DNA of 64,000 nt from an uncultured Phycisphaerales bacterium. Lineage in GTDB: Bacteria > Planctomycetota > Phycisphaerae > Phycisphaerales > UBA1924. Of this stretch, positions 1 through 17,007 are shown in pieces; position 1 is the stretch's first letter; each line of letters opens with the position of its first letter. The notes below the pieces were generated by a model. The model was not told the DNA's origin. It ran no database searches and saw nothing but the letters and a program-made list of their open reading frames with translations. A program made the translations under genes and the position numbers. The DNA lies in NCBI GenBank assembly GCA_937974035.1, contig CALJIV010000049.1, positions 10,638 to 74,637 of the forward strand, in the 5' to 3' direction.

Positions 1-1
1 G

Positions 2-2809
2 ACGGGTCTGGACGCGGAGTTCAAGGCCCTCGATGAGCTGGTCAATGAGATCCGCTCTCGCCCCGCCCCCAAGGACCAGGCCGAAGTCCGGTCGCTGCGC
101 AACGCCATGAACGATGCGGAAGCGAAGCTCGCCGCCCTCGATAAGAAGGTGGCGGAGCTGGACGCCGCGATCGTGGTGATCGACCCGGAGAAGGACCCGC
201 GGCCGGACAAGTGGATGGAAGCGCCGATCGCCGAGCTGGCGGGGCTTCTCAGCGCGGTACTCAAGGACTGCCCCTCCGGCGTGACGATCGAGGGGGCACC
301 CGATCCGGTCGCCCTCCAGATTGAGGTGGACGAGTTCATCGCGCAGGTCAACGAGATTCGCGCGCGGCCGTGGGAGCAGCCCGACCTTACCCCCGTCGAG
401 CAGAAGGCCGCGCAGGCGGAGCTGCACCGTGCGGTGAAGGACGCGATTCTGCGCCAGCGCACCTTGAAGGCGTCGCTGACCAAGGCCAAGGCCGAGGCGC
501 GCGACGTCCTCACCCGGTACGTGCGCTCTCTTGAGCAGCAGAACAAGGACGCGGCGATCGTCCAGTCGGTCCCGCTGCGCGAGGCCTTCGCGATCGGCAT
601 CCGCGCCGCGGACCCGGAGCGGTATCAGGAGCTGGACTGGGCGGGGGTGAAGTCCAAGGTTGAGGCGCTGACGGGGTGGCTCAAGGGGCTGGAGGAGCAG
701 TTCGCGGTTTCGCTGGATGTTTCCCCCATGCCCGGCTCGGCGGTCGCCGTGGACGCCGCGGTGCGTGCCGTGGACGCCCGGCGCGAGCGGGCCCTGGCGA
801 GCAGCGTCGAACCGATGACCTCCAGCGGGAAGATGCCGGGCGATGATCCGGCGTATGCCGAGGCCACGGCGAGGCTGAAGGCGGAGCTGACGGCGTACAT
901 CGAAGGGGTGAAGCGCGTGCTCGCCGACGCGGTGGAGGTCGAGCGGCTGCTATCGCTTGGGTACGCCTACGAGGAAGCCGCGGGCGACAAGTCGATCAAG
1001 TCGCTGCATGAGTCGGTGAACAGCGCGGTGACCGACGGCGGCGCGTACGCGGACATCCGCGCCTCGGTGGAGAGCGTGCTGGGACGCGCGGCGGACCTGC
1101 AGCAGGTCGCCACCGTCACAGACGGCGTGCGCCTGATCAACCTCATCGCCCGCGCCGGGCAGGGGCCCGGAGGGGTGTCGCCCGCGATGGCCGCGTGGAA
1201 CAAGCTGCCGGAGATCGGTTTCCCCGCCGTGCCCGCGGACCTGGACGGGGCGCTGCGCATCCTGAATGAGCAGCTCATTCCCGCGCTGGCGCAGGTCTCC
1301 GACGCGGCCCGCCGCGCGGCTCTTGAGAGCCGCGCGAAAGAAGTGCTCAAGCGGATGTGGACGGTCTACGTGCTGGAGCGCAGCGCGGGCAACTTCGAGG
1401 CCGTGAACGCCGCGTTCTCCGGGCGTGCGAAGTACGGTGTGGCGGACGCGGACATCGCGCAGCTCCCCGCCTGGGCCCGGTACAACTTCGAGCGCTGGAA
1501 GCTCCTGCAGGATGTCGCGGCGGTGAACGTTCCCGACCCCAAGGAGCAGATCAAGCAGCTTCAATCACGGGTGCTGGCCTTCAACCAGGCCGTGGCCGGG
1601 CTGGGGCTGGATGGCCTGGAGGCGGTCAACACGATGGGCGCGCGGCTCAAGCCTTTCGCCGAGGGCAAGGACCTGGACCTGACGCGCGAGGGGCCGGGGC
1701 GGCTGTCGTGGACGACCACCGTCAACGACGCCGACGGGTACTCGGTGACGTACTCGTGGAAGGGGCCGAGCGGGCGTTCGTACTCGCTCGAGTTCCGGCG
1801 CGTCCATGAGAGCGCCGACGCGGCGAGCTATCTCTGCACGACGGAGGTTTCCGCCGGGCTTTTCATCGACCTTGTGGACGCCTACGGGAAGTGGGACGAG
1901 CTGAAGACGCTGACGAACGTCCTGGAGCCGCCGAACGACAACCGCGGGCCGCGGGTGGTGCGGTGGACGCTCGACGGGAAGCTGGACATCAGCCGTCCGA
2001 CGGACCCGGACAAGACGGGGAAGGGGTGGCACCGCTCGCTGGCGGTGGACGACATGCTCCGCAACCCGTACTACCCGCCGGGCGGCGAGCCGGAGCGCGG
2101 GCCGGACTACGTGGACCCCGTGGACTACATCTCTCCCAGTGCCGCGATTTACGTCTCGCGGCTGCTGGGGTGCCGTCTGCCGAGCTCGGAGGAGTGGAAG
2201 GCGGCGCTGGCGAAGTTCCCCGCGCGGACGGCCAACCTGCGGGACGCGGCCTACGCGGCGCAGCACGCGCACATTTCGCGCATCTTCGCCCAGGCGAACA
2301 AGCAGCCCGAGTACCCCAACTACGGCATGCTCAAGCCGACGCCCGCGGCGCTGGAGGCCCTGAAGGTCACCATCCCGCCCGCGGAGCAGGACGGCCAACC
2401 CGCGGTGGAGGGGACCGACGGCTATCTGTTCTTCGCGCCGGTGGACTTCGGCGAGCCCGGCGACGTCTTCCGCAACTTGATCGGCAACGTCTGGGAGTTC
2501 GTCTACGAGGCTCCCGCGGAGCTGGACGCCTTGGCCGTGCCCGCGTCTCCCGCGGACGTGACGGCCCTGACCCGCACCAGGGAGCAGCGCGACAAGGTGC
2601 GGGCCATCGGCGGCTCGGCGCTTTCGCCGAAGGAGCTGCCGATCGATCGCCCGATCGAGTTCAACTTCCTTGCCTCCCGGGCCGGCTTTACGGACGCCGG
2701 CTTCCGCCTCGCGTTTTCGACCGGCGCCGGCACGGGCGGGACGGGGAAGCCCGCCGAACGGCTCGCCAAGATCCTCTCTGTGGACTACCTCCCGGGGGCG
2801 AACCCCTGA
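2..2809 (+). CDS. 5-prime-truncated large protein with C-terminal FGE/SUMF1-like (C-type-lectin-fold) domain; paralog of the periplasmic part of the TagF fusion at 11086..14739
   Basis: The frame is open from base 2 with no stop before the ATG at 107, so the gene probably starts left of the window. The C-terminal ~330 aa carry FGE-family motifs: TTEVSAGLF, GCRLPSSEEWKAA, NLIGNVWEFV, GGSAL, GFRLAFS. These align motif for motif with 11086..14739. An Ala/Glu-rich helical region precedes the domain. Confidence 0.75.
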   Translation, partial: TGLDAEFKALDELVNEIRSRPAPKDQAEVRSLRNAMNDAEAKLAALDKKVAELDAAIVVIDPEKDPRPDKWMEAPIAELAGLLSAVLKDCPSGVTIEGAPDPVALQIEVDEFIAQVNEIRARPWEQPDLTPVEQKAAQAELHRAVKDAILRQRTLKASLTKAKAEARDVLTRYVRSLEQQNKDAAIVQSVPLREAFAIGIRAADPERYQELDWAGVKSKVEALTGWLKGLEEQFAVSLDVSPMPGSAVAVDAAVRAVDARRERALASSVEPMTSSGKMPGDDPAYAEATARLKAELTAYIEGVKRVLADAVEVERLLSLGYAYEEAAGDKSIKSLHESVNSAVTDGGAYADIRASVESVLGRAADLQQVATVTDGVRLINLIARAGQGPGGVSPAMAAWNKLPEIGFPAVPADLDGALRILNEQLIPALAQVSDAARRAALESRAKEVLKRMWTVYVLERSAGNFEAVNAAFSGRAKYGVADADIAQLPAWARYNFERWKLLQDVAAVNVPDPKEQIKQLQSRVLAFNQAVAGLGLDGLEAVNTMGARLKPFAEGKDLDLTREGPGRLSWTTTVNDADGYSVTYSWKGPSGRSYSLEFRRVHESADAASYLCTTEVSAGLFIDLVDAYGKWDELKTLTNVLEPPNDNRGPRVVRWTLDGKLDISRPTDPDKTGKGWHRSLAVDDMLRNPYYPPGGEPERGPDYVDPVDYISPSAAIYVSRLLGCRLPSSEEWKAALAKFPARTANLRDAAYAAQHAHISRIFAQANKQPEYPNYGMLKPTPAALEALKVTIPPAEQDGQPAVEGTDGYLFFAPVDFGEPGDVFRNLIGNVWEFVYEAPAELDALAVPASPADVTALTRTREQRDKVRAIGGSALSPKELPIDRPIEFNFLASRAGFTDAGFRLAFSTGAGTGGTGKPAERLAKILSVDYLPGANP

Positions 2810-2812: not shown

Positions 2813-3031
2813 TCAGTCGTTGGTCGGCACGAACGCCGTCGTGTGCGGCACGAAGGCGGTCTGCACCTGGTCATGGAGGGCAAGATTGCACCCCAGCGCA
2901 TCGCTCGCGGCGATATTGCCGCCGTCCTGCTGGGAAAAGGTGTAGGTGCCGGAGGAGGCAGTTTGGCTGGAGCAGCCGCCGACGACAAGAGCAAACGCGG
3001 CACACGCAGAGAGGCAGAGCAGACGACGCAT
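2813..3031 (-). CDS. small lipoprotein (72 aa), convergent with the FGE-like gene
   Basis: ATG at 3031 is preceded by GGGAG with a 6-nt spacer. The N-terminus MRRLLCLSACAAFALVVGGC has a signal peptide and lipobox. Third-position G/C is high in this frame. Stop TGA lies 3 nt from the stop of the convergent gene. Confidence 0.5.
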   Translation of the reverse strand: MRRLLCLSACAAFALVVGGCSSQTASSGTYTFSQQDGGNIAASDALGCNLALHDQVQTAFVPHTTAFVPTND

Positions 3032-3414
3032 GGTCGAACTCCCGTTGGCCCGTGGTTGCAGGCCTGCGGGAAAGGTCGGCAACTTTCGCCGATCTCCCGA
3101 GCTCGCGACCATGCGAGGGGCGTGTTCGCTCGGGTCTGCGACGATGGGGGGGAGCGGGGCGTGCGGGGGGGACGTGGGGGTGCTGACGGCTGGGAAGGGC
3201 GTGCGGGCGCGGTGGAACCCATGGTTCGGGGCCGAGCGGGCCCAGCGGCGTGGGAGACCTGTTGTTTACGGACCCCGCGATCTGTCTCAAACATCGGACC
3301 TGGGGGAAGTTGTGCGGGGGGGTAAGCCCGATATCATGGGCCCCGGCGGCCGCGCACGGGTGCGCGGCGGTTGTGACTTGATAGCCGCGCCTTTGGCGCA
3401 CGGAGTTGTCCAGC

Positions 3415-4347
3415 GTGATTGAACCGACCTCGGAACGCGGGAGGAAGCTGGCGGCGCTGTCCGCGCGCCTGCGAGTTCTGCACAGCGAGCTGGCCGATCA
3501 GCCCGCGGAGATCCGCGCCGAGCAGCTTCGGGACGAAGTCCAGAGGGCCACGGCGAGCATCGCCCCCGGCGAGCGGGAGGCCTTCCTGACCGGTCTTCTT
3601 GAGCAGTTCCCCACCTGGGCGGACGGGGGCCCGAGCGCCGCGCCTTCGCCCGCGCCTGCCACTGCCGCGGCTGCTCCCCCGCCGGAAATCAAAGACCCCA
3701 AGGTGCTGGCGGAGAAGCTCATCGAGAACTCCCACAACCTGAGCGACGCCGAGCGGGCGGACATCGCCTCTCGCCTCGCGGGGGCGGGCTTCTCGCTGGT
3801 GCAGGTGAAGGAGGCCCCGGGCGGGCTGCCCACGGCGCAGGTCACGGAGTTCAAGAAGGTGGTGGGGCTGCCGCCGGAGACGGAGGTCAATCCCGTCCGC
3901 CTGGTGGAGATCGCGTCCCTGCTCGCGGAGTTCACGCTGAAGCTCGAGCCCTGGGCGTGCAGCTATTGGCGCGACCTGGCTCCCGACGCGAAGAACCAGA
4001 TTTACCAGATCCTGAACAAGGATCTGCCGCGGTACGCGGCGGGGGACGACAAGCTGACGAAGGAGGGGATGCACAAGAACGTGTACAAGCTGCGCAGCCT
4101 GGTCTCGCTGCTGATGAAGGGCGTGATCGAGGCGGGCAAGCAGTTCTCGCGGGATCACCTTGCGAGGTACTCGATCGAGGCCATCCGCGAGGCGGCCCCG
4201 CGCGAGACGTTCAAGAGCGACGAGTACCGCTGCTGGAAGCAGTACGAGCGTCTGATGGAGGGGGTGGACGCGGCGGCGATCGAGAAGCGGCTCAAGCAGG
4301 TGATCGCCAGGGACGTGGACGCCGGGTTGAGCCAGGTGATCCGGTAG
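3415..4347 (+). CDS. hypothetical T6SS-associated protein in the fha/tagH position, with no FHA domain visible
   Basis: Good coding frame directly upstream of tssK. GTG at 3415 has a GGAG 9 nt upstream. The longest ORF starts at TTG 3406, but that codon abuts the GGAG. The protein has a helical N-terminus, a Pro/Ala-rich linker (SAAPSPAPATAAAAPPPE) and a ~200-aa C-terminal domain of unknown family. Confidence 0.7.
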   Translation: MIEPTSERGRKLAALSARLRVLHSELADQPAEIRAEQLRDEVQRATASIAPGEREAFLTGLLEQFPTWADGGPSAAPSPAPATAAAAPPPEIKDPKVLAEKLIENSHNLSDAERADIASRLAGAGFSLVQVKEAPGGLPTAQVTEFKKVVGLPPETEVNPVRLVEIASLLAEFTLKLEPWACSYWRDLAPDAKNQIYQILNKDLPRYAAGDDKLTKEGMHKNVYKLRSLVSLLMKGVIEAGKQFSRDHLARYSIEAIREAAPRETFKSDEYRCWKQYERLMEGVDAAAIEKRLKQVIARDVDAGLSQVIR

Positions 4348-4408: not shown

Positions 4409-5824
4409 ATGTCGCAGATCGGACAGATCCATTGGCACGAGGGGTTGTTCCTCCAGCCCCACCATCTCCAGACAATGCAGCGGGACCTGGCGGAGACCAG
4501 CGCGCGGGAGCGGCGGCTCTCGTGGCCCTACCCGTACGGCCTGATCGACCTGCGCATCTCGACCGATGCGCTTGAGAACATGCTGGTGCGGATCGACCGT
4601 CTTCGGGCGATCATGCCCAGCGGTCTGGAGATCGACGTTCCGGGCAACGCGGACATTCCGGCGCTGGACATCAAGCGTGTGTTCCAGGCCAGCAGCGGGT
4701 CGTTCACGGTGAGCCTGGCGGTGCCTCTGTGGCAGGCGCAGCGGGCCAACACCGTCGAGCCCACGCCCGCGCAGGGCGGCGGCGGCGCGGCTCACCGTGC
4801 CGTGGCGGAAGAGGCCCGCATCAAGCGGCTCTACCGCGTGGCCGAGATCACCCGTCCCGACGAGAACACGGGCGAAAACCCCCAGCCGGTGATCGTGCGC
4901 CGCTACAACGCGCGCCTGGTGGTGGAGGGGGACGACACCAGCGACATGGAAGTCCTGCCGCTGGTGCGCATCATCCACGCGGCGCAGGAGAGCACTGTTC
5001 CGCGTCCTGACCCCTCCTTCGTGCCGCCCTGCCTCGTGATCGGCGGCTCGCCGACGCTGCGCAACCTGCTCCGCGACCTGGGCGCGGCGGTGGAGGCCTC
5101 GCGCAAGGAGCTGGTGAACCAGATGACCCGCGGCGGGTTCGTCCCCGAGAACCTGCGCGGGCCGCAGCTCATGCAGCTGCTGCGTCTGCGCACGCTCAAC
5201 AAGTTCGCGGCGCGCCTGCCGGTGCTTGTGGCCGGGGGCACGACCGGCGGCGGCTCGATCACGCCCTATCAGGCGTACCTGGAGCTGCGCGAGCTGCAGG
5301 GCGAGCTGGCCGCGCTCTCGCCCGACCGCGATCCCTTCGAGGCTCCCCGCTACGACCACGACAATCCGGGCGTGGTGTTCGAGGAGCTGGACCGGCGCAT
5401 CCGGCCGCTGCTCCGCGGCGACATCCAGAAGAAGTTCCTGCAGGTGCCCTTCACGCGCCAGGACGGCGTCCTGGCGGCGACGCTCACCGACGAGCACCTC
5501 ACGCAGCCCAACGGCTACTTCATCGGCATCCGCACGAAGATGGACCCGACGCAGCTCGGCAAGCTGGTGGAGGATCAGGACCGCTTCAAGCTCATGCCGC
5601 GGAGCATGATCAAGCTCAACATCTACGGCATCAAGCTGGTGGAGGAGCGGCACCCGCCGATGGAGATGCCCAGCAGCATCGACCTGCACTACTTCCGCGT
5701 GGACATCGGCGAGAGCAAGAAGATGTGGGAGCGGATGACGGGCGAGAAGGCCATGGCCATCCGCTGGCCGGAGAACGAGAACTTCGAATACCAGGACGTG
5801 TCGCTGTACATGACGGTGCCGTGA
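4409..5824 (+). CDS. tssK: T6SS baseplate protein TssK
   Basis: 471 aa. The N-terminus IHWHEGLFLQPHHLQ matches the conserved TssK start. Position is before tssL-tssM. Confidence 0.9.
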   Translation: MSQIGQIHWHEGLFLQPHHLQTMQRDLAETSARERRLSWPYPYGLIDLRISTDALENMLVRIDRLRAIMPSGLEIDVPGNADIPALDIKRVFQASSGSFTVSLAVPLWQAQRANTVEPTPAQGGGGAAHRAVAEEARIKRLYRVAEITRPDENTGENPQPVIVRRYNARLVVEGDDTSDMEVLPLVRIIHAAQESTVPRPDPSFVPPCLVIGGSPTLRNLLRDLGAAVEASRKELVNQMTRGGFVPENLRGPQLMQLLRLRTLNKFAARLPVLVAGGTTGGGSITPYQAYLELRELQGELAALSPDRDPFEAPRYDHDNPGVVFEELDRRIRPLLRGDIQKKFLQVPFTRQDGVLAATLTDEHLTQPNGYFIGIRTKMDPTQLGKLVEDQDRFKLMPRSMIKLNIYGIKLVEERHPPMEMPSSIDLHYFRVDIGESKKMWERMTGEKAMAIRWPENENFEYQDVSLYMTVP

Positions 5825-5843: not shown

Positions 5844-6536
5844 ATGACGCTTGTCGAGATCTGCGAACCGCTGCTGGAGTACGTGTGCCGCCTCAACCGC
5901 CTCGGGCGCAAGGGCGGGCGCGCGGACTTCGGGGTCATCCGCGGCGAGATCAAGAGCCTGTTCGCGGAGATGCGGGCCAAGGCCGACGCCACGCCGGGCA
6001 TGAGCGGGCCCTACACCGAGATCGAGCTGGTCCTGATGTTCTTCGTGGACTCGATGATCCTCAACAGCAACCTCGGCGGGGGCTGGAAGCCGCTCTCGCA
6101 CGAGCGGGGCGAGCTGGGCTTCGAGGAGAAGTTCTGGGATCTGCTGGAGGACGCGCTCAAGGACCCGAGCGACTCGGCCACGCAGCGGCTGGCGGTGTTC
6201 TACGTGTGCATCGGCCTGGGCTTCACCGGGCTGTACACGGGGCAGTACGACTACATCCGCCGCAAGATGCTGGAGATCTCGGCGCGTCTGCGCGGGTTCA
6301 TCGACGCGGACCAGGCGGCGCGCATCTGCCCCGACGCCTACGAGAACGTGGACACGCGCAACCTGACGCAGCCTCCCAACCGCAGCCTGACGGCGATGGT
6401 CATCGCGCTGGTGGCGATCACGGGCGTGCTGCTGGTGGCCTACGTGCAGATGTTCCGCCATGCCGCGGGGGAACTCAGCGGCTCGCTGGGGGCGATCCAG
6501 CAGAGCCACGAGCAGAGCGGCAAGGCCGGGACCTGA
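5844..6536 (+). CDS. tssL: T6SS membrane-complex protein TssL (DotU family), with no peptidoglycan-binding extension
   Basis: 230 aa. DotU-like core (LAVFYVCIGLGFTGLY) and a single C-terminal TM helix (LTAMVIALVAITGVLLVAYV) with only a short tail. GAGGAA lies upstream of the ATG. Confidence 0.9.
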   Translation: MTLVEICEPLLEYVCRLNRLGRKGGRADFGVIRGEIKSLFAEMRAKADATPGMSGPYTEIELVLMFFVDSMILNSNLGGGWKPLSHERGELGFEEKFWDLLEDALKDPSDSATQRLAVFYVCIGLGFTGLYTGQYDYIRRKMLEISARLRGFIDADQAARICPDAYENVDTRNLTQPPNRSLTAMVIALVAITGVLLVAYVQMFRHAAGELSGSLGAIQQSHEQSGKAGT

Positions 6537-6560: not shown

Positions 6561-9500
6561 ATGCTGTGGTCAGGATTCACGAACCTCCCACGTCCGATTC
6601 AGGCCCTGGCGCTGCTGGCGAGCGGGGTCTGCGTCGTCTCGGTGGCGATGTCCTTCTTCGACACGAGCAACCCGTTCTGGCGGTGGCTGGCGATCGGGTT
6701 CGTCGCCGTGTTCGTGCTGGTCGCGCTGTACCTGCTGGTGATGAAGCTGCGCGACAAGGCCAAGAGCGGCCCCTTCGCCTCGCTCATCGCCAAGGCCGGC
6801 GTCGGGCGCGCGGCGGTGGACCCCGCGCAGAAGGCCCGCATGGACGACCTGCGGAAAAAGTTTGAGGAGGGCGTCAACGCCTTCAAGAGCGCGGGCAAGG
6901 ACCTCTACAGCCTTCCCTGGTTCCTGCTCGTCGGCCCCAGCGGCTCGGGCAAGACCGAGGCGATGCGCCACTGCAACGTGGGCTTCCCCCCCGGCCTGCA
7001 GGACTGCCTGCAGGGCACCGGCGGCACGATGAACATGCACTGGTGGTTCACCAACCACGCGGTGGTGCTCGACACCGCGGGCCGCATGTTCATGGAGGAG
7101 GCGGCGGACGGCCAGGCGACGGAGTGGAAGGAGTTCCTCAAGCTCCTGAAGGACTGCCGCCCCAACGCACCCATCAACGGGCTGCTGCTGGTGATCTCCG
7201 CCGAGAGCCTGCTCAAGGACACCGCGGACAAGATCGAGAAGACCGCCAGCGCCATCGCCCGCCAGCTCGACGTGGTGCAGCGCACGCTCGACGTCCGCTT
7301 CCCGGTGTTCGTCATCGTCACCAAGTGCGACAAGATCGTGGGCTTCCGCGACTTCTTCGAGACGCTCAACGATCCCGCGCTGCAGCACCAGATCCTGGGG
7401 TGGAGCAACCCCGCCCCGCTGGACGAGCCCTTCAAGCCCGAGCAGGTGGATCAGCACCTCGCCAGCGTGCGCGCCCGCCTCATGAAGCGGCGCATGGGCC
7501 TGCTGCAGAACCCCATCCACACCAGCGACCCCAGCGCCCGCCGCACTGACCAGGTGGACGAGCTGTTCGAGCTTCCCGACAACCTGATGCGCATCGCCCC
7601 GCGCCTGCGCCGCTATCTGGAGATGATCTTCGTCGCGGGCGAGTGGAGCCCCAAGCCGCTCTTCCTCCGCGGCATCTACTTCACCAGCTCCATGCGTGAG
7701 GGCCAGGCCCTCGACGTCAGCCTCGCCGAGGCCCTGGGCATCGACGTGGAGTCCATCCCCGGCGGCAAGGAGTGGGACAAGGACAAGGCCTACTTCCTCC
7801 GCGACGTCTTCATGAACAAGGTGTTCAAGGAGAAGGGGCTGGTCACCCGCGCGGCGAACGTCAGCAAGGCGCTGGCGAAGCAGCGGCGGCTGATCCTGGG
7901 CATCTCCACCGCCACGGTGGTGGTGGTGACGGGCGTCGCCGTGCTGGGTTGGTTCCAGTTCAAGAGCTCGCTGGGCCCGCCGAGCCGGTTCTGGTCCCAG
8001 GTGCGCCTGGCCTACGCCGGTGATCCCGACGGCGAGCGCGACCCGCTCGACATCGAGGTCATCAAGAGCGAGGACGGCAAGACGTGGACCTATGTGGGCG
8101 GGCGCGAGTGGGGCCCGCGCGAGGCGCTCGACGATGATCGGCTCGCCACGCCGACGGAGCTGGTGCTTGAGTCCGCGGCGCAGACGCGCCGGCAGATCAA
8201 GCCGCCGCTGATCGCCGCGCCGATCGTCGGCTGGAGCTCGACGTGGAGCGAGGAGCAGGTGCGGGCGCACCGGGCGGTGGCCGAGCGTGCGGTGATCGTT
8301 CCGCTGGTGCAGGCCGCCCGCAGCAAGCTGATGGTGGAGAAGAAGTGGGGGCCCGACGCCGTGGGCGCCCTCGCCCAGCTTCTGCGCCTGCAGACCTACG
8401 CCCTGGGCGCCAAGCCCGCGGACAACGACCCCGGGACCAAGCCGGTGAAGGGTATCGACGCGGACGTGCTGTTCCGCTACGTGCTGGGCGCGGAGTACAA
8501 CACGCGCACCGGCTTCGGCGCGGACCGCGAGAAGCTGGTGAAGGCCGTCGCCGACGCCTACCCCGAGGACTGGGACCCGAAGCGCAACAAGCCCGCGGAG
8601 GTTCTGGGCGGGGCGGACCGCGACTCCATCATGACGATGAACCTCGCGGTGGATGAGCTGGTCAAGCACCTGACCGCTCTGGGCGCCAGCGAAGGCAGCA
8701 AGATGGCGCACCTGACGGACCTGCTCGACGGTCTGTCCACCTTCCGCGATGAGGAGACCAAGCTGCTGAGCCTGGAGTGGTTCCGCTCCGGGCCGGAGGC
8801 GAAGCTGCCGCAGACGCTGGCCGAGTACACGCTCTTCGAGGCGGCGTTCCTCAACAGCGCCGACAAGATCGCGGACAGCCGCGCGAAGATCGACGCCGTC
8901 GCCAAGGCCCTGGGCCCGGCGATGAACGACGTGCCCAGCCTGCTCAAGACGGCGGGCGATGAGCTGCAGAAGGAGATGGCCCAGTACTTCGCGATGCTGC
9001 GGGCCCAGCTCCCCGAGGTGCCCGAGAGCGAGCGCGACTCCTCCAAGATTCACAGGGAGCTTGTGGACCTTCGCGCCAAGCTCGACGAGCAGTCCAAGAC
9101 GGTGGACGCCGCCGTCCGCGCCAAGCTCGAGCAGATGGCGGGCCTGGTGAAGGAGCTGGCCCCGATGGTGGCTCCGGGCCACGCCGACCGCACCGACGCC
9201 CGCGCCTACGTGGCGCGTGCCGAGGCGTACCGCATCGCGGCGGAGGACGTGAAGAACGCCACGGCCCCCCTGACGCCGCCCGTGGACCCCGCGGTGCCCG
9301 TCAGCGACGTGCCGCCTTCGCTCGCCTCGCAGGTCGAGCTTGTGGACAAGAACGTGGCGCAGCTTTCCGCGGCGATCGCCGCGTGGGGCGCGTGGGTTCC
9401 CGATTCGGGCCAGCAGCCCGTGCTCGCGTCGGCGCGGGACGCCTCCGTCAGCCTGGCGCGCCGGGCGCTTGAGGTGGCGCGTTCGCGCCGCCTGGGCGAG

Positions 9501-11060
9501 CTGGCGAGCAAGACCATCGCGGGCTGGCCGCAGACGCCCGCCGCGGTGGCGAATCGCGTGCAGACCGTCGGCACGGGCCGGATCAACGAGGGCACGTTCA
9601 AGAAGGTGATGCGTCCGCGCGTCCCGCTGAGCGAGATGGAGTCGGGCGGGGAGTTCTCGCGCGAGTACCACCCGGACGCGGCCCGCGAGGTGCTGGGCGA
9701 CTGGGCCAAGCTGCGCGAGCTGATCGAGCCGACCTCCAGCGGGGCGCAGCGCGCGGTGATCGGGCGTGAGGAGCTTCGGGCCGATCGCGCCTACCGCATC
9801 AGCGCCGACGCCACCGCCGAGTTCGTCCGCGACTACATCCGCTACTGGCGCGCCCAGGCCCTGGAGGCCAGCCGCCCGAACAAGGCCACGTGGGCCGAGT
9901 TTGGCGAGAAGCTCAAGTCCGCGCCTCACTTCGAGATCAAGAGCGAGCTTCAGGCCCTGTACGACACCGTCAAGCAGGCCCTGAGCGCCGTGCCGCCCTC
10001 CGCGGCGTGGGACGACGTGCTCAACTCCGCCAACGGCGAGTTCGAGGCCGCCTTCACCGGCCTGTCGAAGCCCGCGTTCATGGACGAGACCAAGGTCAGC
10101 CTGAGCGCGTGGAACAAGCTGGTGGATATGGGCCCGGCCAAGGCCCGCGACACGCTGCTGGATTCGATGCGGCGCGAGAAGATCCGCGACGAGTACTTCA
10201 GCGTCTACCGCGCCGACTCGCTGGGTCTGAAGTACTGGAATGACCTGCTCGTCAACGGCCTGACCTGCCTGGTCCGCGAGACCCAGGGCGAACTGGAGGC
10301 GGCGCGCGACGGGCTGGTGAAGGACGCCAAGGGCGTGCCTCTGGCCTTCGGCCCCTCGGACCTGCGCGACCTCAGCCCCGCCGCGGTCGCAAAGATCAAG
10401 GGCTGGGCGGACAAGCTCGAGGCTCTGGCCGGCAACAACCGCAGCGCCGCCGCGGCGGAGTCGCTCGCGCCGGAAATCAAGACCCTCATGCTGCGGCTGG
10501 CGGGAGCGGACATCTTCCCCGACCCGCTCAGCCGTCAGTGGTTCTCGAGGCTGCGCGCCGTGGTCAACGTCGTCGGCCAGGACAAGCCGCTGGGCGTGAT
10601 GATCAACTACCCGGTGGAATACGACCGGCCCCGCAAGCCGGGTCTGGTGGACGACGTCCGCGACAACTTCCGCTACGCGGCCCTGCGCGTGGGCGGGCTG
10701 GCCCGCGGCCCGGTCTTCAGCCTCATCAACCCGATCGAGGAGGCCAAGCTCAAGGAGCTGCGCATCGAGCTGCCTCTGCCCGACGGGCAGACCAGCGAGG
10801 TGTACCTGTACAAGCAGGACCCCGGCCTGGGCGGCATGAACCAGCCCGACGCGAAGATCGTGCTGCCCGGCAACTGGAGCTTCCTGCGCCAGATGCTGAT
10901 CGAGTCGGGCGAGGCTCAGCGTGATGAGAAGACCGGTCAGTGGAAGGTGCTTCTGACCACCACCGACGGATCGATGTACCTGTGGTTGACGCTGACGTTC
11001 GACCAGGAGCTCCCGCTGCCCAGCGAGTGGCCCCGCGTCGAGCAATGGCCCGTGCCGTGA
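6561..11060 (+). CDS. tssM: T6SS membrane-complex protein TssM (IcmF family), unusually long at 1499 aa
   Basis: Two N-terminal TM helices, Walker A GPSGSGKT, and a third TM near residue 445-465 (LILGISTATVVVVTGVAVLGWF). A very large C-terminal region follows. Gene sits between tssL and tagF. Confidence 0.92.
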   Translation: MLWSGFTNLPRPIQALALLASGVCVVSVAMSFFDTSNPFWRWLAIGFVAVFVLVALYLLVMKLRDKAKSGPFASLIAKAGVGRAAVDPAQKARMDDLRKKFEEGVNAFKSAGKDLYSLPWFLLVGPSGSGKTEAMRHCNVGFPPGLQDCLQGTGGTMNMHWWFTNHAVVLDTAGRMFMEEAADGQATEWKEFLKLLKDCRPNAPINGLLLVISAESLLKDTADKIEKTASAIARQLDVVQRTLDVRFPVFVIVTKCDKIVGFRDFFETLNDPALQHQILGWSNPAPLDEPFKPEQVDQHLASVRARLMKRRMGLLQNPIHTSDPSARRTDQVDELFELPDNLMRIAPRLRRYLEMIFVAGEWSPKPLFLRGIYFTSSMREGQALDVSLAEALGIDVESIPGGKEWDKDKAYFLRDVFMNKVFKEKGLVTRAANVSKALAKQRRLILGISTATVVVVTGVAVLGWFQFKSSLGPPSRFWSQVRLAYAGDPDGERDPLDIEVIKSEDGKTWTYVGGREWGPREALDDDRLATPTELVLESAAQTRRQIKPPLIAAPIVGWSSTWSEEQVRAHRAVAERAVIVPLVQAARSKLMVEKKWGPDAVGALAQLLRLQTYALGAKPADNDPGTKPVKGIDADVLFRYVLGAEYNTRTGFGADREKLVKAVADAYPEDWDPKRNKPAEVLGGADRDSIMTMNLAVDELVKHLTALGASEGSKMAHLTDLLDGLSTFRDEETKLLSLEWFRSGPEAKLPQTLAEYTLFEAAFLNSADKIADSRAKIDAVAKALGPAMNDVPSLLKTAGDELQKEMAQYFAMLRAQLPEVPESERDSSKIHRELVDLRAKLDEQSKTVDAAVRAKLEQMAGLVKELAPMVAPGHADRTDARAYVARAEAYRIAAEDVKNATAPLTPPVDPAVPVSDVPPSLASQVELVDKNVAQLSAAIAAWGAWVPDSGQQPVLASARDASVSLARRALEVARSRRLGELASKTIAGWPQTPAAVANRVQTVGTGRINEGTFKKVMRPRVPLSEMESGGEFSREYHPDAAREVLGDWAKLRELIEPTSSGAQRAVIGREELRADRAYRISADATAEFVRDYIRYWRAQALEASRPNKATWAEFGEKLKSAPHFEIKSELQALYDTVKQALSAVPPSAAWDDVLNSANGEFEAAFTGLSKPAFMDETKVSLSAWNKLVDMGPAKARDTLLDSMRREKIRDEYFSVYRADSLGLKYWNDLLVNGLTCLVRETQGELEAARDGLVKDAKGVPLAFGPSDLRDLSPAAVAKIKGWADKLEALAGNNRSAAAAESLAPEIKTLMLRLAGADIFPDPLSRQWFSRLRAVVNVVGQDKPLGVMINYPVEYDRPRKPGLVDDVRDNFRYAALRVGGLARGPVFSLINPIEEAKLKELRIELPLPDGQTSEVYLYKQDPGLGGMNQPDAKIVLPGNWSFLRQMLIESGEAQRDEKTGQWKVLLTTTDGSMYLWLTLTFDQELPLPSEWPRVEQWPVP

Positions 11061-11085: not shown

Positions 11086-14000
11086 GTGAGCCAGGCAAGG
11101 ACCAAGGACGGGATCGGCAAAGGCGTGCGGGTGCATGTCGCCGCGTTCGGCAAGCATCCCGGCTGGGACGACCACATCGAGGAGATCGGCCTCGATACCT
11201 CGATGCTGGTCAACGCCAAGCGGCTTCTGTACACCGAGTGCATCGGCGGGTGCATCGACTCGGGCGAGTGGGAAAAGCTCGACGAGGACCGCCGCATCCC
11301 CTTCCGGCACCAGTTCTACTGGCGCACCCCCGAAGGGCTGCTGATCGGCCGCATGTGGGCCAGCCGCGACGGCAAGGGCCGCACCAAGTATCCGATGGTC
11401 GTCTGCGCCGTGATCCACGGCGTGCCGGACTCGTGGGCCGTGGAGCAGGTGCTGCCGCGGCTCGCCGTCGTGGAGGAAAAGTGCGGGCAGACCAGCTCCG
11501 CGGAGCTGGTGCGGCTGGCCATCGGCGAGTGCCGCTCCAGCCTCGAAGCCGCCGCCGCGGCGTACGACGGCTCGCCGGGCGAGTCTCCCGCGCAGCGTCT
11601 CTCGCGCCTCGTGCAGAGCCCCGAGCTTTCGGCCAACAACGGCGAGGGCCTCAAGCGCGTGCTCTACGAGATGTCGCGCGAGTTCGTGGACTTCCGTCCC
11701 AGCGGCAACGCCGCCCTCCGCTCGCGCAACGCCGTGCTCCCGGCCCAGCAGATCCGCGTGCCCAAGGGCCTGACCGCGCCGGGCGAGGCCGCCCTCGCTT
11801 GGATGACGCTGCTGGATCAGGAAATCTCTCGCTCCATCCCGCTGCTGCTCGTGGAACCCGTGGACGGGCGGTACATCGACCTCATCGTCGGTGACATCAA
11901 GCCCAAGCAGTTCTACTGCGTCCGCGCGGGCGAGAAGGCGCTGGGCCTCACCAGCGACGTGCCTTACACGATGGACGCCGCGGCTGTTCAGGAAGCGCAG
12001 GACAAGATCGACGCGTGGTCCCAGGGGCGCACCGTCGCGGGCGCGGAGCCCATCACCAGCGGCGCGGCACCGCTCCGCTCGAAGAAGGCGCTGCGGTTCG
12101 CGCTGCTCGCAGGCGCGGGTTTGGCGGTGATCGCGGTTGTGTTCCTCTTGACGCGCGCCGGCACGCCCGACCCGGCCAACGCCGAGCCGCCCGAGCCCCC
12201 GCGTCCGCAGGTGCGCCGCGCTCCGGCTCCGCAGCCGGAAGAGCCCATCGCGAAGGAAACCGAAGAGCCCGCCGAGCCTGCCGCGCAGGACCCCACCGAC
12301 CCGCGCGTGAACTGGACGTATGACCAGGCCGCCGCTCATGCACGGGAAACGCTGGCCCGCCTGAACCGGGAGCTCGCGGCGGAAAACAGCCCTCCGCGCG
12401 CGGGCGAGCGTCAGCATCTGGAAGACATCGAAAAACGCGCCGCGATCATCCGCAACAAGCCCTGGCGGCCCGCGACGCGGGAGGCGCTGGTGCGCGACAT
12501 GGCCGCGGTGGACGCGGAACTCAAGAACGTGCAGATCGCGCTGGATGAAGCGCTCGCGGGCGTCGCGGCGAGGATCGATGCGTTCCTGATTCAGCGAGCC
12601 GCCACGACGCCGGTTCAGAACCGCATCCTGGCCGCGGCGTGGGGGGCGGGGCTGGCCGCGATCGACCGCTCCGCCGGTTGGAAGGAGGCCCGCGCGCGGG
12701 TCAGCGCGCTGGAGACGAACCTCAAGGCCGCGGAGGCCGCCGTCGCGGGCGTGGCGCTCGTCCAGCCTCCCGAAGACTCGATGCTGAACGCGGAGGTGTT
12801 CAAGACGGCTTCCGCGGCTCGGCGCGACGCGGCCCTGCGTGCCGCGGGCGATGCCGCCGCCGCGGGCGATCGCGAGCGAATCGATGCCGTGGCCAAGGAA
12901 CTGCGGGATTGGAACGGGTACGCGGTCTCGCTGCTGGACCAGGGTGTGCAGCTCGCTGCGATGGTGCAGTCGGGCGGCGTGCTCGATCCTCAGGCCAAGC
13001 CCTCGGCGTCGCAGATCATCGCTTCGATGCAGTCCTCGCCCGCTTACAACGACCTGAGCGAAGCGTTCCGGCCGGTGCTCGATCAGGTGGAGGCGGTCCG
13101 CGCGGTGGGAAGCCTCAACGACGCAGAAGCGTTGATCGACGTGATCAAGGGCGCGGCGAACGACGCCTCGGGGCGTCGCACGCCCGCCGCGGTCGCCGCT
13201 TGGCAGCGTCTGTGCGATCTTGGCTGGCCCTCGCTTCCGGCGGAACTCTCGGAGGCCGCCGCGATCCGCAGCGGGGCCCTCGGCCGCGCTCTGGCCGCGG
13301 TTCCGGACAGCGCTCAGCGCGAAAGCCTGGAGAAGCTCACGCAGGCTCCCTCCCGCGAGATGTGGCGACGTTTCACGGCGAAGGGGGGCGTCAACGAGGC
13401 GGGGCTGGAAGCGGCCGTCGCCGCCCGCGACGTGCTCACCACTGGCGACGCGGCGTCGTCTCTGCCTGCGACGATCCGGTACAACCTGCTGCGCAAGGAA
13501 CTGGCCGACGCACTGAAAGCCGCCGATGCGGAGCCGCTGTCCAGGCGGAGAGAGGCGCGTCTCGCGGCGGTGGAGTCTTTCCGTCGGCAGGTCGCGGCTT
13601 TGGGGCCGGAGATCGCGGCGAAGCCGAAGGTCGCATCGTTCATCGCCGCGGTGAACAAGGCGGCCGAGTCGATGGCCGCGCCGGACGTCAGCAACCTCGG
13701 GCCGGGCAGCGTGGGCTGGAAGGCTGGGCCGATGACCGACGACGGCACGGTCACCTACACGCACGACAAGGCCGGACAGCTCACCTTCCGCCGCATCTCC
13801 GGCACGGAGAGCGTGGCGTTCATGAGCACCACGGAGGTTTCCGTGGGGCAGTTCATCGAGGCGATCTCCAGCGCGGGCAAGTGGGACGAGGTGCGCCAGC
13901 TCCTCATCAACTATCCCGCCGGAGGCGACGATCCCCGGCGCGGCCCGCGCACCTGGGAGTGGACCACCAACCCCGACGCTCCGATGGCCGTCGCGGCTCC

Positions 14001-14739
14001 CGGCGAGGGGGACACCAGCAGCGGCTGGCTCCGCGTCAAGACCTCCATGGCGGGCAAGGCGTACTACCCCGAGGGGCTATCGGTGGAGCCACCCTCGGCC
14101 GATCACCCGATCCAGTACATCTCGCCAGCCGCGGCGGTGCTCGCCGCGCGCACGCTCGGGTGCCGCCTCCCGACAACCGCGGAGTGGCAGGCGGCCGCTG
14201 CTGCGACCAACACAACAGCGCAGAACTTGCGCGATGCCACGTGGCGTCGTCAGTTCGAGCGCTGCAAGGAGCTGCTCTCGTCGAGCCCGGACTTCCCCTC
14301 CGGGGGCGTGTTCCGGCCCGCCGATGCTCCTCGCGTTCAGCCGTTGCAGGATGGGTTCCCCGCCGTGGAAACCGACGACCAGACCCTCTGGTTCTCGAAA
14401 GTCGGCGGTGGACCGAACTTCCAGCACCTGATCGGCAACGTAGCGGAGTTTGTTTGGGAGGACAGCGCGGGGATGGAGGCGCTCCCGGCCGTGGCGGGGC
14501 CGATCAAGTCTGCGCTGGGGCGGTGGGAAAAGTTGCGCGTGGTGGGGGGGTCTGCCCTGTCGGCGAAGGACATTCCGACCAACGTCCCGCAGGCGCCGGC
14601 CTTTACTCAGTCGCCGGAGGGTTGGTCGGACGTCGGTTTCAGGCTCGCGTTCACCGCGCCGGCGGGCGCGGGGGAAGGCGGGGCGGCGGATCTCGAAGCG
14701 GCGCTGGCCTCCAGCGGCTACCTCCTGAGCGACGAGTGA
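11086..14739 (+). CDS. tagF: TagF-like N-terminal domain / single TM helix / long helical region / C-terminal FGE-SUMF1-like domain fusion (1217 aa)
   Basis: GTG start with AGGAGG 8 nt upstream. The N-terminus VHVAAFGKHPGWDDHI resembles the TagF (DUF2094) G-x-F/Y-G-K-x-P-x-x-x-D motif, and the gene sits in the tagF position after tssM. TM helix FALLAGAGLAVIAVVFLL is at ~12097..12150. The C-terminus has FGE motifs: STTEVSVGQF, GCRLPTTAEWQAA, HLIGNVAEFVWE, GGSAL, GFRLAFT. Confidence 0.7.
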   Translation: MSQARTKDGIGKGVRVHVAAFGKHPGWDDHIEEIGLDTSMLVNAKRLLYTECIGGCIDSGEWEKLDEDRRIPFRHQFYWRTPEGLLIGRMWASRDGKGRTKYPMVVCAVIHGVPDSWAVEQVLPRLAVVEEKCGQTSSAELVRLAIGECRSSLEAAAAAYDGSPGESPAQRLSRLVQSPELSANNGEGLKRVLYEMSREFVDFRPSGNAALRSRNAVLPAQQIRVPKGLTAPGEAALAWMTLLDQEISRSIPLLLVEPVDGRYIDLIVGDIKPKQFYCVRAGEKALGLTSDVPYTMDAAAVQEAQDKIDAWSQGRTVAGAEPITSGAAPLRSKKALRFALLAGAGLAVIAVVFLLTRAGTPDPANAEPPEPPRPQVRRAPAPQPEEPIAKETEEPAEPAAQDPTDPRVNWTYDQAAAHARETLARLNRELAAENSPPRAGERQHLEDIEKRAAIIRNKPWRPATREALVRDMAAVDAELKNVQIALDEALAGVAARIDAFLIQRAATTPVQNRILAAAWGAGLAAIDRSAGWKEARARVSALETNLKAAEAAVAGVALVQPPEDSMLNAEVFKTASAARRDAALRAAGDAAAAGDRERIDAVAKELRDWNGYAVSLLDQGVQLAAMVQSGGVLDPQAKPSASQIIASMQSSPAYNDLSEAFRPVLDQVEAVRAVGSLNDAEALIDVIKGAANDASGRRTPAAVAAWQRLCDLGWPSLPAELSEAAAIRSGALGRALAAVPDSAQRESLEKLTQAPSREMWRRFTAKGGVNEAGLEAAVAARDVLTTGDAASSLPATIRYNLLRKELADALKAADAEPLSRRREARLAAVESFRRQVAALGPEIAAKPKVASFIAAVNKAAESMAAPDVSNLGPGSVGWKAGPMTDDGTVTYTHDKAGQLTFRRISGTESVAFMSTTEVSVGQFIEAISSAGKWDEVRQLLINYPAGGDDPRRGPRTWEWTTNPDAPMAVAAPGEGDTSSGWLRVKTSMAGKAYYPEGLSVEPPSADHPIQYISPAAAVLAARTLGCRLPTTAEWQAAAAATNTTAQNLRDATWRRQFERCKELLSSSPDFPSGGVFRPADAPRVQPLQDGFPAVETDDQTLWFSKVGGGPNFQHLIGNVAEFVWEDSAGMEALPAVAGPIKSALGRWEKLRVVGGSALSAKDIPTNVPQAPAFTQSPEGWSDVGFRLAFTAPAGAGEGGAADLEAALASSGYLLSDE

Positions 14740-14762: not shown

Positions 14763-14791
14763 TTGACGACGCGCCGAGGTGCTCGTAGGTT
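14763..14791 (+). promoter_or_regulatory. candidate sigma70-like promoter upstream of tpsB
   Basis: TTGACG (14763..14768), a 17-nt spacer, then TAGGTT (14786..14791), inside the 190-bp gap between tagF and tpsB. This is motif resemblance only, and promoter rules for this lineage are unknown. Confidence 0.2.
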
Positions 14792-14928
14792 TGACCCCTC
14801 ATGCCGGTGACGTCCGCCGGCAGGTAGCAGGCCGCGCCCGGTCTGCCTGGCCGGTTCTCCGTGCGCCAGGGGGGACAAAGATCGGAGGGGGTCTGGCGGT
14901 GAGCCAAGGAAGCAGAAAAGGAACTGAG

Positions 14929-17007
14929 ATGAGGGTCCCAGCATTCCGTCCGCGGGTGTGGCGTGCTCCACGATCCGGCGCCACGTGCCGATGGCTGCGC
15001 GAACGCAGCGTGCTGACCGCGCTCGGCGCGGCGGCCTTGCTCTCTTCCCAGGCTCTGGCGCAGGGGACGCCCGAAGATGCGCGCAAGCCTGCGATCGACA
15101 TCAACGCGGTGCAGCCCGCGCCCGGCCAGCCTCCCGCTGAGCCCGCTCCGGGCGAGTCCCTCGACGCGCCTCCGGGCACGGCGACCGAGCGCGACGGCGG
15201 ACGCTACCCCGTCTCCCGCTTCCTCATTGAGTATCACAGCGAGCACCCCGAGCACCCGTCCATCGACGATCTCATGGAGGCGGTGGTGCGCCTGGGCGTC
15301 ACGCCCGACGGCTACGTCGCGTACCGCGAGGGGATGCCCTCGGCGGAGCTGCGCATCGCGGACGTGGTGGAGGGCACCGGCGGCGTGTTCTATCGCAGCG
15401 CGCTCAACTCTGTGGCCCGCGCCATCGTCGAGCGGCTGAACAGGAAGGGCTTCATCGGCATCTTCGTGCAGCTCCACCCCGACGACATCGACGAGACCAA
15501 CGGGGCGGACCTGCGCGCGGGCAAGCGCCCCGAGCTGCGGCTGGTCGTGTGGACGGGCGTCGTGAAGAACGTCCGCACCATCACCTCCGGCGACCGCCTG
15601 AAGAAGGAGGTGGACGCGGGGCTGGTCGATCGCGTCAACACCGATGACCCGGTGCTGAACCGCATCCGCGATCAATCGCCGCTGCAGGTGGACAACCTGC
15701 TGCGCAAGGACCTGATGGACGACTTCGTCTTCCGCCTCAACCGCCACCCCGGCCGGCGCGTGGACGTGGCGATCTCCCCCGGCGAGAACCCGGAGGAGGT
15801 GGTGGTGGACTACCTCGTCTCCGAGGCCAAGCCCTGGTCCATCTATGCCCAGCTCTCCAACACGGGCACCAAGGCCACGAACCAGTGGCGCGAGCGCTTC
15901 GGCTTCGTGCACAACCAGCTCACCGGGCACGACGACGTGCTTCGCGTGGACTACATCACCGGCGGCTTCCAGGACTCGCACTCGGTGGCCGTGAACTACG
16001 AGTTCCCGCTGCTCTCCGACCGTCTGCGGTTGCGGACCTACGGCGCGTTCGCGACGTTCGAGGCGTCCGAGGTCGGCCTGTCCGACGAGTCCTTCTCGGG
16101 GACGACGTTCTCCGCGGGCGCGGAGCTGTCGGGCACCATCTTCCAGCACCGCGAGCTGTTCATCGACGCCGTCGGCGGCATCCGCTGGGAGAACATCCAC
16201 GTCGAGAACGAGACGTTCGTGACCGAGGCGAGGGAGAACTTCGTGATTCCCTACGTGGGCCTGCGGCTCGACCGCGCCACCGAGGCCGCGACGACCTACG
16301 CCACCGTCACGATGGAGTTCCAGGTGCCCGAGCTCGCGGGCACCGACGAGGACGAGATCGACTTCCTCGGACGTCCCGAGGTGGACGACCACTGGCAGGT
16401 GCTCAAGTTCTCCTTCGAGCAGTCCTTCTACCTCGAGCCGCTGTTCAACCCCGGCGGCTACAGCGGACGCAGCGCCCGCGGCCCGCTCACGCTCGCGCAC
16501 GAGATCGCCTTCTCCGCGCGCGGCCAGTGGGCCTTCGGCGCGCGTCTGATCCCCAATGAAGAGGAAGTCGCCGGCGGCTTCTTCTCCGTCCGCGGCTACC
16601 CCGAGTCGGTGGTGGCGGGCGACAACACCGTGATCGCCTCGCTCGAGTACCGCTTCCACCTTCCCCGGGTCTTCCCCGTGAGCGACCCGGGCACGCTGTT
16701 CGGAAGGGAAGTGGGTTTCCTTGGGAAAGACTTCCGATACGCCCCGCAGCAGCCCTTCGGGCGTGCCGACTGGGACCTGGTCTTCAAGGCGTTCATCGAC
16801 GCGGCGCGGACGGAGAACAACGACCCGCAACCCGGCGAGAACGACCACACCCTTGTTGGCGCGGGACTCGGAATCGAGTATCAGTTCAAGCGCAACGTCA
16901 GTGCTCGGCTGGAGTACGGGTTCCCGTTCGAAGTCGTTCGGGATGAATCGGAGAACGTGGACGTCGGCGACGGCCGCTGGCACTTCTCCCTGACGCTTCT
17001 GTACTGA
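14929..17007 (+). CDS. tpsB: two-partner secretion outer-membrane transporter (TpsB; ShlB/FhaC/HecB family)
   Basis: 692 aa from the ATG at 14929, with AAGGAA motifs upstream. Signal peptide ends ...SSQALAQG. Length and beta-barrel-like C-terminus ending in an aromatic residue (SLTLLY) fit the family. It lies immediately upstream of a TPS-domain giant protein. Confidence 0.8.
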   Translation: MRVPAFRPRVWRAPRSGATCRWLRERSVLTALGAAALLSSQALAQGTPEDARKPAIDINAVQPAPGQPPAEPAPGESLDAPPGTATERDGGRYPVSRFLIEYHSEHPEHPSIDDLMEAVVRLGVTPDGYVAYREGMPSAELRIADVVEGTGGVFYRSALNSVARAIVERLNRKGFIGIFVQLHPDDIDETNGADLRAGKRPELRLVVWTGVVKNVRTITSGDRLKKEVDAGLVDRVNTDDPVLNRIRDQSPLQVDNLLRKDLMDDFVFRLNRHPGRRVDVAISPGENPEEVVVDYLVSEAKPWSIYAQLSNTGTKATNQWRERFGFVHNQLTGHDDVLRVDYITGGFQDSHSVAVNYEFPLLSDRLRLRTYGAFATFEASEVGLSDESFSGTTFSAGAELSGTIFQHRELFIDAVGGIRWENIHVENETFVTEARENFVIPYVGLRLDRATEAATTYATVTMEFQVPELAGTDEDEIDFLGRPEVDDHWQVLKFSFEQSFYLEPLFNPGGYSGRSARGPLTLAHEIAFSARGQWAFGARLIPNEEEVAGGFFSVRGYPESVVAGDNTVIASLEYRFHLPRVFPVSDPGTLFGREVGFLGKDFRYAPQQPFGRADWDLVFKAFIDAARTENNDPQPGENDHTLVGAGLGIEYQFKRNVSARLEYGFPFEVVRDESENVDVGDGRWHFSLTLLY

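Follow-up and report, generated by a model that had tools for sequence, protein, structure and literature searches.

A predicted pseudokinase and a TagF fusion with paralogous FGE-like ectodomains flank the membrane-complex genes of a planctomycete type VI secretion cluster

Why would a type VI secretion system (T6SS) cluster carry two copies of a large module related to formylglycine-generating enzyme (FGE), one on either side of its membrane-complex genes? The question is raised by a 64,000-nucleotide stretch of DNA (the window; C49:10638-74637, where C49 is the contig) from an uncultured Phycisphaerales bacterium, whose genome comprises 2.94 Mb in 53 contigs with 68% G+C. At the left edge of the window lies gene A, which encodes a predicted pseudokinase, a transmembrane (TM) helix, a helical region and an FGE-like domain. 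Gene B, located after tssM, encodes a TagF-type domain followed by the same three elements. We consider it probable, though far from assured, that A is dedicated to the T6SS and that the two proteins form a contact-based, phosphorylation-free variant of the TagR-PpkA-Fha-TagF pathway.

The frame that is open from base 2 of the window to a stop codon at 2807-2809 is the 3′ part of A. Read from its start at C49:9643, 994 nt left of the window, the complete gene encodes 1267 residues, and the "giant protein" of an earlier, sequence-only reading is therefore giant in a relative sense only. Its four parts are, in order, a Hanks-kinase-like domain, one TM helix, a long helical periplasmic region and the FGE-like domain. 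It had been asked whether the upstream sequence would add a TM helix and a TagF-like or other cytoplasmic domain; the helix is there, and the domain preceding it is a predicted pseudokinase, not a TagF-like domain. The sole predicted membrane helix lies at residues ∼266-290. Because this single hydrophobic segment is preceded by KEPKK on its N-terminal side, we infer a cytoplasmic N terminus and some 975 residues in the periplasm. A strong terminator-like hairpin (10 pairs followed by TTTTT; L001:9594-9617, on C49) is located 26 nt 5′ of the A start codon and leaves no promoter space between itself and the gene. Expression of A may depend on read-through and be low compared with that of the two preceding genes. 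The features of A and B are as follows.

1-2809, plus strand: 3′ 2.8 kb of gene A (open reading frame and full translation); the predicted pseudokinase domain (residues 1-262) and the TM helix are outside the window.
986-1681, plus strand: helical periplasmic region of A (residues 661-892), also present in the TagF fusion (BLASTP, hhalign).
1682-2725, plus strand: expanded, predicted non-catalytic FGE-like domain of A (residues 893-1240; sub-threshold PF03781; profile match to FGE structures in the Protein Data Bank (PDB), E = 5e-8).
2609-2626, plus strand: GGSALS, which replaces the FGE catalytic cysteine pair in A (profile alignment).
11086-14739, plus strand: gene B, TagF-TM-helical-FGE-like fusion of 1217 residues (AlphaFold2, Foldseek, PF03781 at E = 2.3e-9).

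The products of A and B align with 33% identity over 588 residues (BLASTP E = 3e-66; on the A side from residue 329 of P0001). The FGE-like domain that the sequence-only reading saw in both is indeed shared, and the alignment holds the motif pairs on which it relied, YISPSAAIYVSRLLGCRLPSSEEWKAA with YISPAAAVLAARTLGCRLPTTAEWQAA and GFRLAFS with GFRLAFT. The similar helical region that it placed in front of this domain is also common to both proteins, and the homology is wider than first noticed. With hhalign, the FGE-like part and the preceding helical part match at 99.9% (E = 2e-32 for the helical region), and the membrane-proximal periplasmic parts match at 98.7% (E = 4.7e-16, 176 columns). 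The homology covers most of both ectodomains and becomes weaker toward the membrane. Pfam FGE-sulfatase (PF03781) recognizes B above its cut-off, and its match to A is sub-threshold (20.8 bits against a cut-off of 23.3, E = 3.4e-4). A joint A/B family profile finds the FGE structures 6muj and 2q17 and, over all, matches structures of bacterial and human FGE, CalU17, EgtB and OvsA (best E = 5e-8).

In the residue alignment, the catalytic pair of Streptomyces FGE, GGSYLCHDSYC, faces GGSALSPxx (GGSALSPKELP) in the A/B family. A serine invariably replaces the first cysteine and the second position varies, in agreement with the earlier impression that neither C-terminal segment contains catalytic cysteines. 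Since both cysteines are replaced, the FGE-like ectodomain is predicted to be a binding domain and not an enzyme. In A, a long helical stalk would be capped by an FGE-like domain that binds something rather than catalyzes.

Copies of the module were found by tblastn of the genome only in A and B, and a six-frame Pfam search gave three FGE-like regions, namely A (C49:12475-12900), the TagF fusion and a 338-residue open reading frame (ORF) on contig C40. In a phylogenetic tree A and B fall, by their long ectodomains, into one clade with a support of 100, apart from the compact FGE domains of ∼700-residue TagF fusions, which are mostly from Verrucomicrobiota. The duplication is old, because A of this genome clusters with its own orthologs and away from the B encoded beside it. 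The tree also rules out a recent gene conversion between the two.

The ectodomains share their superfamily, and the motifs RLPTxxEW and GNVxEW...GFR, with FGE/SUMF1, EgtB and FGE-like T6SS immunity proteins. In contrast to FGE, the domain in A and B is expanded to ∼350 residues by insertions, its cysteines are replaced and it is fused to signaling domains. FGE-like proteins are a reported T6SS immunity family (bioRxiv 10.1101/2021.05.21.445229), and both ectodomains appear from their sequences to be non-catalytic binding domains. They might, then, serve in the periplasm for immunity or as decoys, binding T6SS effectors, whether incoming or the cell's own, with the cytoplasmic fusion being secondary. 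Such a role seems improbable to us. Unlike the immunity proteins, neither A nor B adjoins an effector gene or vgrG; in all loci read the neighbors are a lipoprotein gene, a Fha-like ORF, tssK, tssL and tssM. This membrane-complex position is fixed across distant taxa. Immunity genes usually vary with effectors, and fusion partners such as TagF and a kinase fold speak for signaling. If effector binding were the signal that is sensed, the immunity explanation could merge with the signaling role favored here.

What, then, is attached to the ectodomain of A in the cytoplasm? Residues 1-262 gave no Pfam match, with the Pkinase model included, and Pfam and NCBIfam scans of the N termini of A and B returned nothing useful; these domains were identified only by family profiles and structure modeling. 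A profile built from 17 homologous N termini of the A family matched the kinases StkP (E = 2e-10), PknA (E = 6e-7), PknB (E = 5e-5) and then PknI in the PDB. In these matches HGxLKPxN of the A family aligns with HRDLKPxN of Hanks-type kinases. The position of the HRD aspartate (residue 145) is taken by Ala or Asn in four sequences each, Glu or Gly in three each, and Arg, Ser or Lys in one each; Asp is found in 0 of 17. The glycine-rich loop does not follow GxGxxG in these relatives, only G17 being kept (ELASSGPFA), and the αC glutamate position is unconserved. Given the lack of an HRD aspartate in all 17 relatives and of a glycine loop, the domain is, as judged from its residues, a pseudokinase with a Hanks-type fold and without catalysis. 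The VAIK lysine (K38, 16/17), the catalytic-loop asparagine (N150, 17/17) and the DFG-like aspartate (D167 within TDP, 16/17) are retained, so that nucleotide binding is possible. The ortholog in genome G024 has lost the catalytic-loop asparagine.

The A of this genome carries Glu at the HRD-Asp position (HGELKPSN). This residue and the conserved K38, N150 and D167 could be taken to indicate an active, atypical PpkA-like kinase that uses Glu145 or another residue and has TssL, the 313-residue product of a neighboring gene or TagF as its target, the more so as PpkA-type control of T6SS is well established (PMC13584744). That the substituting residue is Ala, Asn, Gly, Arg, Ser or Lys in 14 of 17 relatives argues against it, as do the unconserved glycine-rich loop and αC glutamate and the failure of the Pfam Pkinase model to match the domain. 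FHA, PP2C and Pkinase models had no match in the cluster genes scanned, which leaves such a kinase with neither an FHA reader nor a PP2C phosphatase among them. We regard an active kinase as unlikely, and a pseudokinase as the better description.

The N terminus of B could be assigned from its predicted structure. The AlphaFold2 model of residues 1-315 has a pLDDT of 88.5, and the best Foldseek matches are Acinetobacter baylyi TagF (9t0n, E = 2e-8) and Pseudomonas aeruginosa TagF (6iz8 and 2qnu), indicating that this part of B has a TagF fold. Pfam TagF_N matches weakly in 5 of 14 members of the B family, and the TagF N-terminal profile gave no match among PDB sequences. A single TM helix follows at about residues 338-358. 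The invariant motifs of the B family, GK...D and S.D...R..P, correspond to loop residues of P. aeruginosa TagF, whose binding of Fha and repression require G8, K9, D15, S79, D81, R85 and P88 (PMC5995506). A and the fused form of B co-vary in length, with pairs such as 1267/1217, 1464/1528 and 2100/1945 residues (Spearman 0.69, uncorrected for phylogeny).

Do A and B belong to the T6SS, or do they only happen to lie beside it? Orthologs of A were sought in 41 relatives (E below 1e-25, full length) and were present in 15 genomes; a TagF-type N terminus was found in exactly the same 15. TssC was present in 12 of these; two of the three exceptions have a completeness of only 85%-86%, and the third (G015) reaches 97%. 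Across 401 genomes sampled evenly from the phylum, A occurred in 7, and B in those 7 and in one more. In all, A was sampled in 21 genomes and a TagF protein was present in 21 of 21. Where A and B are on one contig their spacing is 10.5-14.3 kb. Even for distant homologs of A, with 26%-33% identity in the N terminus, the gene order is X652 (∼650 residues), lipoprotein (∼175 residues), A, Fha-like protein (∼315 residues), tssK, tssL, tssM and B. In searches that each scored only the 8000 candidates sharing most words, the A family amounted to 20 clusters, and the B and X652 families to >200 clusters each, reaching Verrucomicrobiota. Two outcomes that would have counted against a dedicated pair were thus not seen: A is not a common, unrelated kinase-FGE enzyme, its pseudokinase family being small and the genome having three FGE-like regions, and the paralog is conserved near T6SS loci, with co-occurrence in 15 of 15 and 7 of 7 genomes and the same order in distant loci.

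Planctomycetota often carry fusions of kinases with FGE domains, which leaves a place for the explanation that A senses the envelope as a kinase-like protein of general use and is a neighbor of T6SS genes by chance. One relative of A (P0022) is not beside T6SS genes, and in the window a convergent gene and a gap of ∼380 bp lie between A and the tssK operon. The perfect co-occurrence of A and TagF in 21 genomes, the fixed synteny, the specific paralogy of the A ectodomain to that of the TagF fusion and the small number of FGE-like regions in the genome make mere neighborhood very improbable, and the least probable of the explanations considered.

Between A and B are a 313-residue ORF, tssK, tssL and tssM, in addition to a small convergent lipoprotein gene after A.

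2813-3031, minus strand: small convergent lipoprotein gene (MRRLLCLSACAAFALVVGGC...), 3 nt after the A stop codon.
3406-4347, plus strand: 313-residue protein at the Fha position (X313; family profile, hhalign).
4409-5824, plus strand: tssK (PF05936, E = 3e-69).
5844-6536, plus strand: tssL, DotU (PF09850, E = 2e-17).
6561-11060, plus strand: tssM, IcmF_N (PF14331, E = 9e-56).

The 313-residue protein is encoded at the Fha position, before tssK. It has no FHA domain, the type of domain that reads phosphothreonine, and alone it gives no Pfam match. Its family comprises 514 clusters, and T6SS_FHA_C (PF20232) matches weakly in 11 of 27 members. The family consensus scores 21.1 bits against PF20232 (E = 2.9e-4), under the Pfam cut-off. 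By hhalign, the family matches 12 genuine planctomycete Fha_C domains at 84.8% (E = 6.6e-6) over ∼73 columns, with LDPxEIE..A and AW..Y of the 313-residue family paired with FSPxEIE.AA and CW.KY of Fha_C. From these profile matches, the protein is probably an FHA-less relative of the C-terminal domain of T6SS Fha/TagH. A canonical Fha_C was found in 31 of the 401 phylum genomes and in none of the seven with A and B, a distribution that fits a classical Fha having given way to an FHA-less form. Four FHA domains are present in the genome, all on other contigs.

These proteins can be compared with the control of the P. aeruginosa T6SS, where TagR, PpkA, Fha1 and TagF, as separate proteins, relay a signal of envelope damage to T6SS assembly through threonine phosphorylation. 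TagR of P. aeruginosa is periplasmic, and its residues 127-359 belong to the FGE-sulfatase superfamily; upon membrane damage, TagR and the outer-membrane lipoprotein TagQ form a 2:2 complex that is modeled to dimerize the periplasmic domains of PpkA (PMC13713981). TagR, which has no enzymatic role, thereby acts upstream of the T6SS kinase through protein contacts and dimerization (PMC13713981). PpkA phosphorylates Fha1, and TagF sequesters unphosphorylated Fha (PMC13713981; PMC13584744). A. baylyi has neither Fha nor the kinase; there, TagF binds Hcp, and TagZ brings it to the membrane (bioRxiv 10.64898/2025.12.08.692957).

Like the Hanks-type Ser/Thr kinase PpkA (TagE; P. aeruginosa H1, Agrobacterium tumefaciens and Serratia marcescens), A is predicted to cross the inner membrane once, with an N-terminal kinase fold on the cytoplasmic side and a sensor part in the periplasm, and its gene shares a T6SS cluster with those of TagF and a probable Fha relative. 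It differs in that the catalytic Asp and the glycine loop are absent and that an FGE-like module replaces the periplasmic domain of PpkA; in addition, no PppA phosphatase was seen among the cluster genes scanned and the Fha-like neighbor has no FHA domain. The ectodomain of A resembles TagR of the TagQRST system as a predicted non-enzymatic, periplasmic module of the FGE superfamily that is tied to a T6SS, whereas TagR is a free protein and the module here is fused behind a helical stalk to the pseudokinase and, in a second copy, to TagF. B has the predicted fold and the GK/D/SDR/P loop residues of known TagF proteins (PA0076, ACIAD2683 with TagZ, and A. tumefaciens TagF-PppA). Elsewhere TagF is brought to the membrane by TagZ or joined with a second regulator, PppA; in contrast to these, B itself appears to be anchored in the membrane and to have a periplasmic sensor, and a pseudokinase carries a second copy of its ectodomain. 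Full-text literature searches returned no published description of a pseudokinase or of TagF fused to an FGE-like ectodomain in a T6SS.

In the mechanism that we propose, a PpkA-like pseudokinase and TagF, which acts in the cytoplasm as the brake on T6SS assembly, have each been joined directly to a TagR-like module. Association of the A and B ectodomains, driven by a ligand or a partner, would alter the behavior of the pseudokinase and TagF domains. These in turn would retain the FHA-less Fha-like protein (or else Hcp or the baseplate) or set it free, and T6SS firing would be gated without phosphotransfer. The architecture of the two proteins, their paralogy, the missing catalytic residues, the joint occurrence and the conserved gene order are observations; the topology, the signaling role, the binding partners and the direction of regulation are what we infer from them. 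A fuller version of this scheme is tentative and somewhat doubtful: the cluster might be a complete phosphorylation-free counterpart of TagQRST-PpkA-Fha-TagF, in which a dead-kinase activator arm and a TagF brake arm sense the same cue and decide whether the FHA-less Fha is held by TagF or passed to the baseplate. Damage, an incoming effector or a lipoprotein of the outer membrane might provide the envelope cue for both arms, with homo- or hetero-association being decisive.

The main rival to this signaling mechanism is a structural role. A would be a part or an anchor of the membrane complex, the pseudokinase would scaffold TssL, TssM or the baseplate, and the long ectodomain would reach across the periplasm or attach to the cell wall, in a likeness to EssB/YukC. 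Pseudokinases are known as core parts of type VIIb secretion. A shares with EssB/YukC the architecture of a bitopic membrane protein whose cytoplasmic pseudokinase would be used non-catalytically; the likeness is one of architecture, and A belongs to a different secretion system and phylum and has a different extracellular domain. The location of A next to tssK-tssL-tssM and a conserved lipoprotein gene, the lack of a Pfam TssJ match in the cluster, the very long, helical ectodomain and its retention in A even where TagF has none are all in line with such a role. We nevertheless consider it unlikely, though less so than the other alternatives, namely residual kinase activity, an immunity-like role and mere neighborhood. 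TagF, which has the same ectodomain, serves in regulation and has no structural function. The A family is also far narrower than this T6SS type, as seen from the family sizes given above for the candidates scored, and a core part would be expected wherever the machine occurs, yet one genome has TagF without A.

Upstream of A, two further genes belong to the conserved block.

C49:7026-8984 (L001), 1.65-3.6 kb left of the window: X652, a conserved 652-residue protein, first gene of the block.
C49:9011-9547 (L001): lipoprotein of ∼178 residues with an LAGGC lipobox, between X652 and A.

X652 gave no Pfam match and no match among PDB sequences, and homologs in Verrucomicrobiota still share ∼40% identity. 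Its AlphaFold2 model has a pLDDT of 83, and Foldseek of this model returned nothing at E < 0.02; the weak resemblances are to kinase domains (JAK/TYK2 JH1, TM score 0.5-0.56 on the target) and to small β-barrels. The C-lobe-like motif SPCDLYAxGVLAVRTLL is nearly invariant, and from the model X652 may be a second, very divergent kinase-like protein. When the supply of a kinase or phosphatase in trans was examined with the model and Foldseek, X652 showed no PP2C resemblance and no canonical kinase motifs. The ∼178-residue lipoprotein is kept in the distant locus L003 (29% identity, E = 1e-18) and could be a TssJ substitute or a TagQ-like partner. An upstream ABC transporter of the branched-chain amino acid type was considered as an analog of TagS/TagT and rejected; it is away from the block in all distant loci. 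Small convergent lipoprotein ORFs are also present 3′ of the A homologs P0020 and P0023 in distant loci, and their likeness to the gene in the window is confined to the signal peptide.

The remainder of the cluster comprises the full T6SS-i set, with tssA, tssB, tssC, three hcp genes, tagJ, tssE, tssF, tssG, clpV and vgrG. A two-partner secretion insertion (window 14779-28707), encoding a ShlB-type transporter and a 3870-residue protein, lies between B and tssA; at L003 a ShlB-like gene is likewise found 3′ of the TagF fusion. Downstream of vgrG, the segment 44142-45277 of the window encodes two adjacent small PG_binding_1 proteins, and HEAT-repeat and amidohydrolase-like proteins come next; these genes are candidates for an effector or immunity role.

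How far does the proposed mechanism hold beyond this genome, and what weighs against it? One difficulty comes from three genera of the same family, represented by G024, G015 and G013, in which TagF is a free protein of ∼320 residues without the periplasmic module while A keeps its ectodomain. Two of these genes are as follows.

L010 (G024:C110), 17742-18695, and L009 (G015:C27), 8355-9344: free TagF after tssM, 317-329 residues, no TM helix.

Because TagF occurs without an ectodomain in these genera, pairing of ectodomains is not the whole mechanism, and the A pseudokinase may there be a membrane receptor for TagF. The sequence-only proposal of a dedicated pair of periplasmic modules tied to T6SS therefore stands with respect to co-occurrence and synteny, and falls short in the three genera whose TagF has no module. 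A second difficulty is P0022, the relative mentioned above, which has 1778 residues and is encoded among metabolic genes (L006/L007, 3559-8895). Its pseudokinase is preceded in tandem by a true Pkinase domain and followed by the same ectodomain, and the Pfam Pkinase matches fall on the true kinase domain only. P0022 may represent an ancestral or an alternative use of the A family.

Other points bear on the absence of phosphotransfer. Glu145, together with the retained Lys, Asn and Asp, leaves room for residual activity in A; X652, conserved upstream, shows the weak kinase-fold matches described above; and further Ser/Thr kinases elsewhere in the genome might act in trans. The Fha_C match of the 313-residue protein is below the Pfam cut-off and covers only the ∼73 columns, and a six-frame search of this genome (G000) with PF20232 gave no match. 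In 25 relatives the same search gave sub-threshold matches only, two of them in X313 orthologs (G013 and G007); since control genomes match at the same threshold, these are not evidence by themselves. The link to TagR is at the level of the superfamily only.

Posttranslational control of T6SS firing is known mainly from the kinase-phosphatase relay of Pseudomonas, Agrobacterium and Serratia. The engagement of PpkA by TagR has so far only been modeled. Three changes coincide in the present cluster, with a TagR-like module on both arms, loss of the kinase residues and an Fha-like neighbor without a phosphothreonine reader. If the proposed function holds, the contacts in this pathway would be the essential element and phosphotransfer dispensable, and the fusions would suggest which proteins bind each other. 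In the fuller and more doubtful scheme, the locus would be a natural "Rosetta-stone" fusion, from which TagR-type FGE domains would appear to signal by direct coupling, with kinase activity being dispensable. To our knowledge, no T6SS accessory gene has been characterized in Planctomycetota or Verrucomicrobiota, and the proteins described here would, if the mechanism is correct, extend knowledge of these genes to both phyla.

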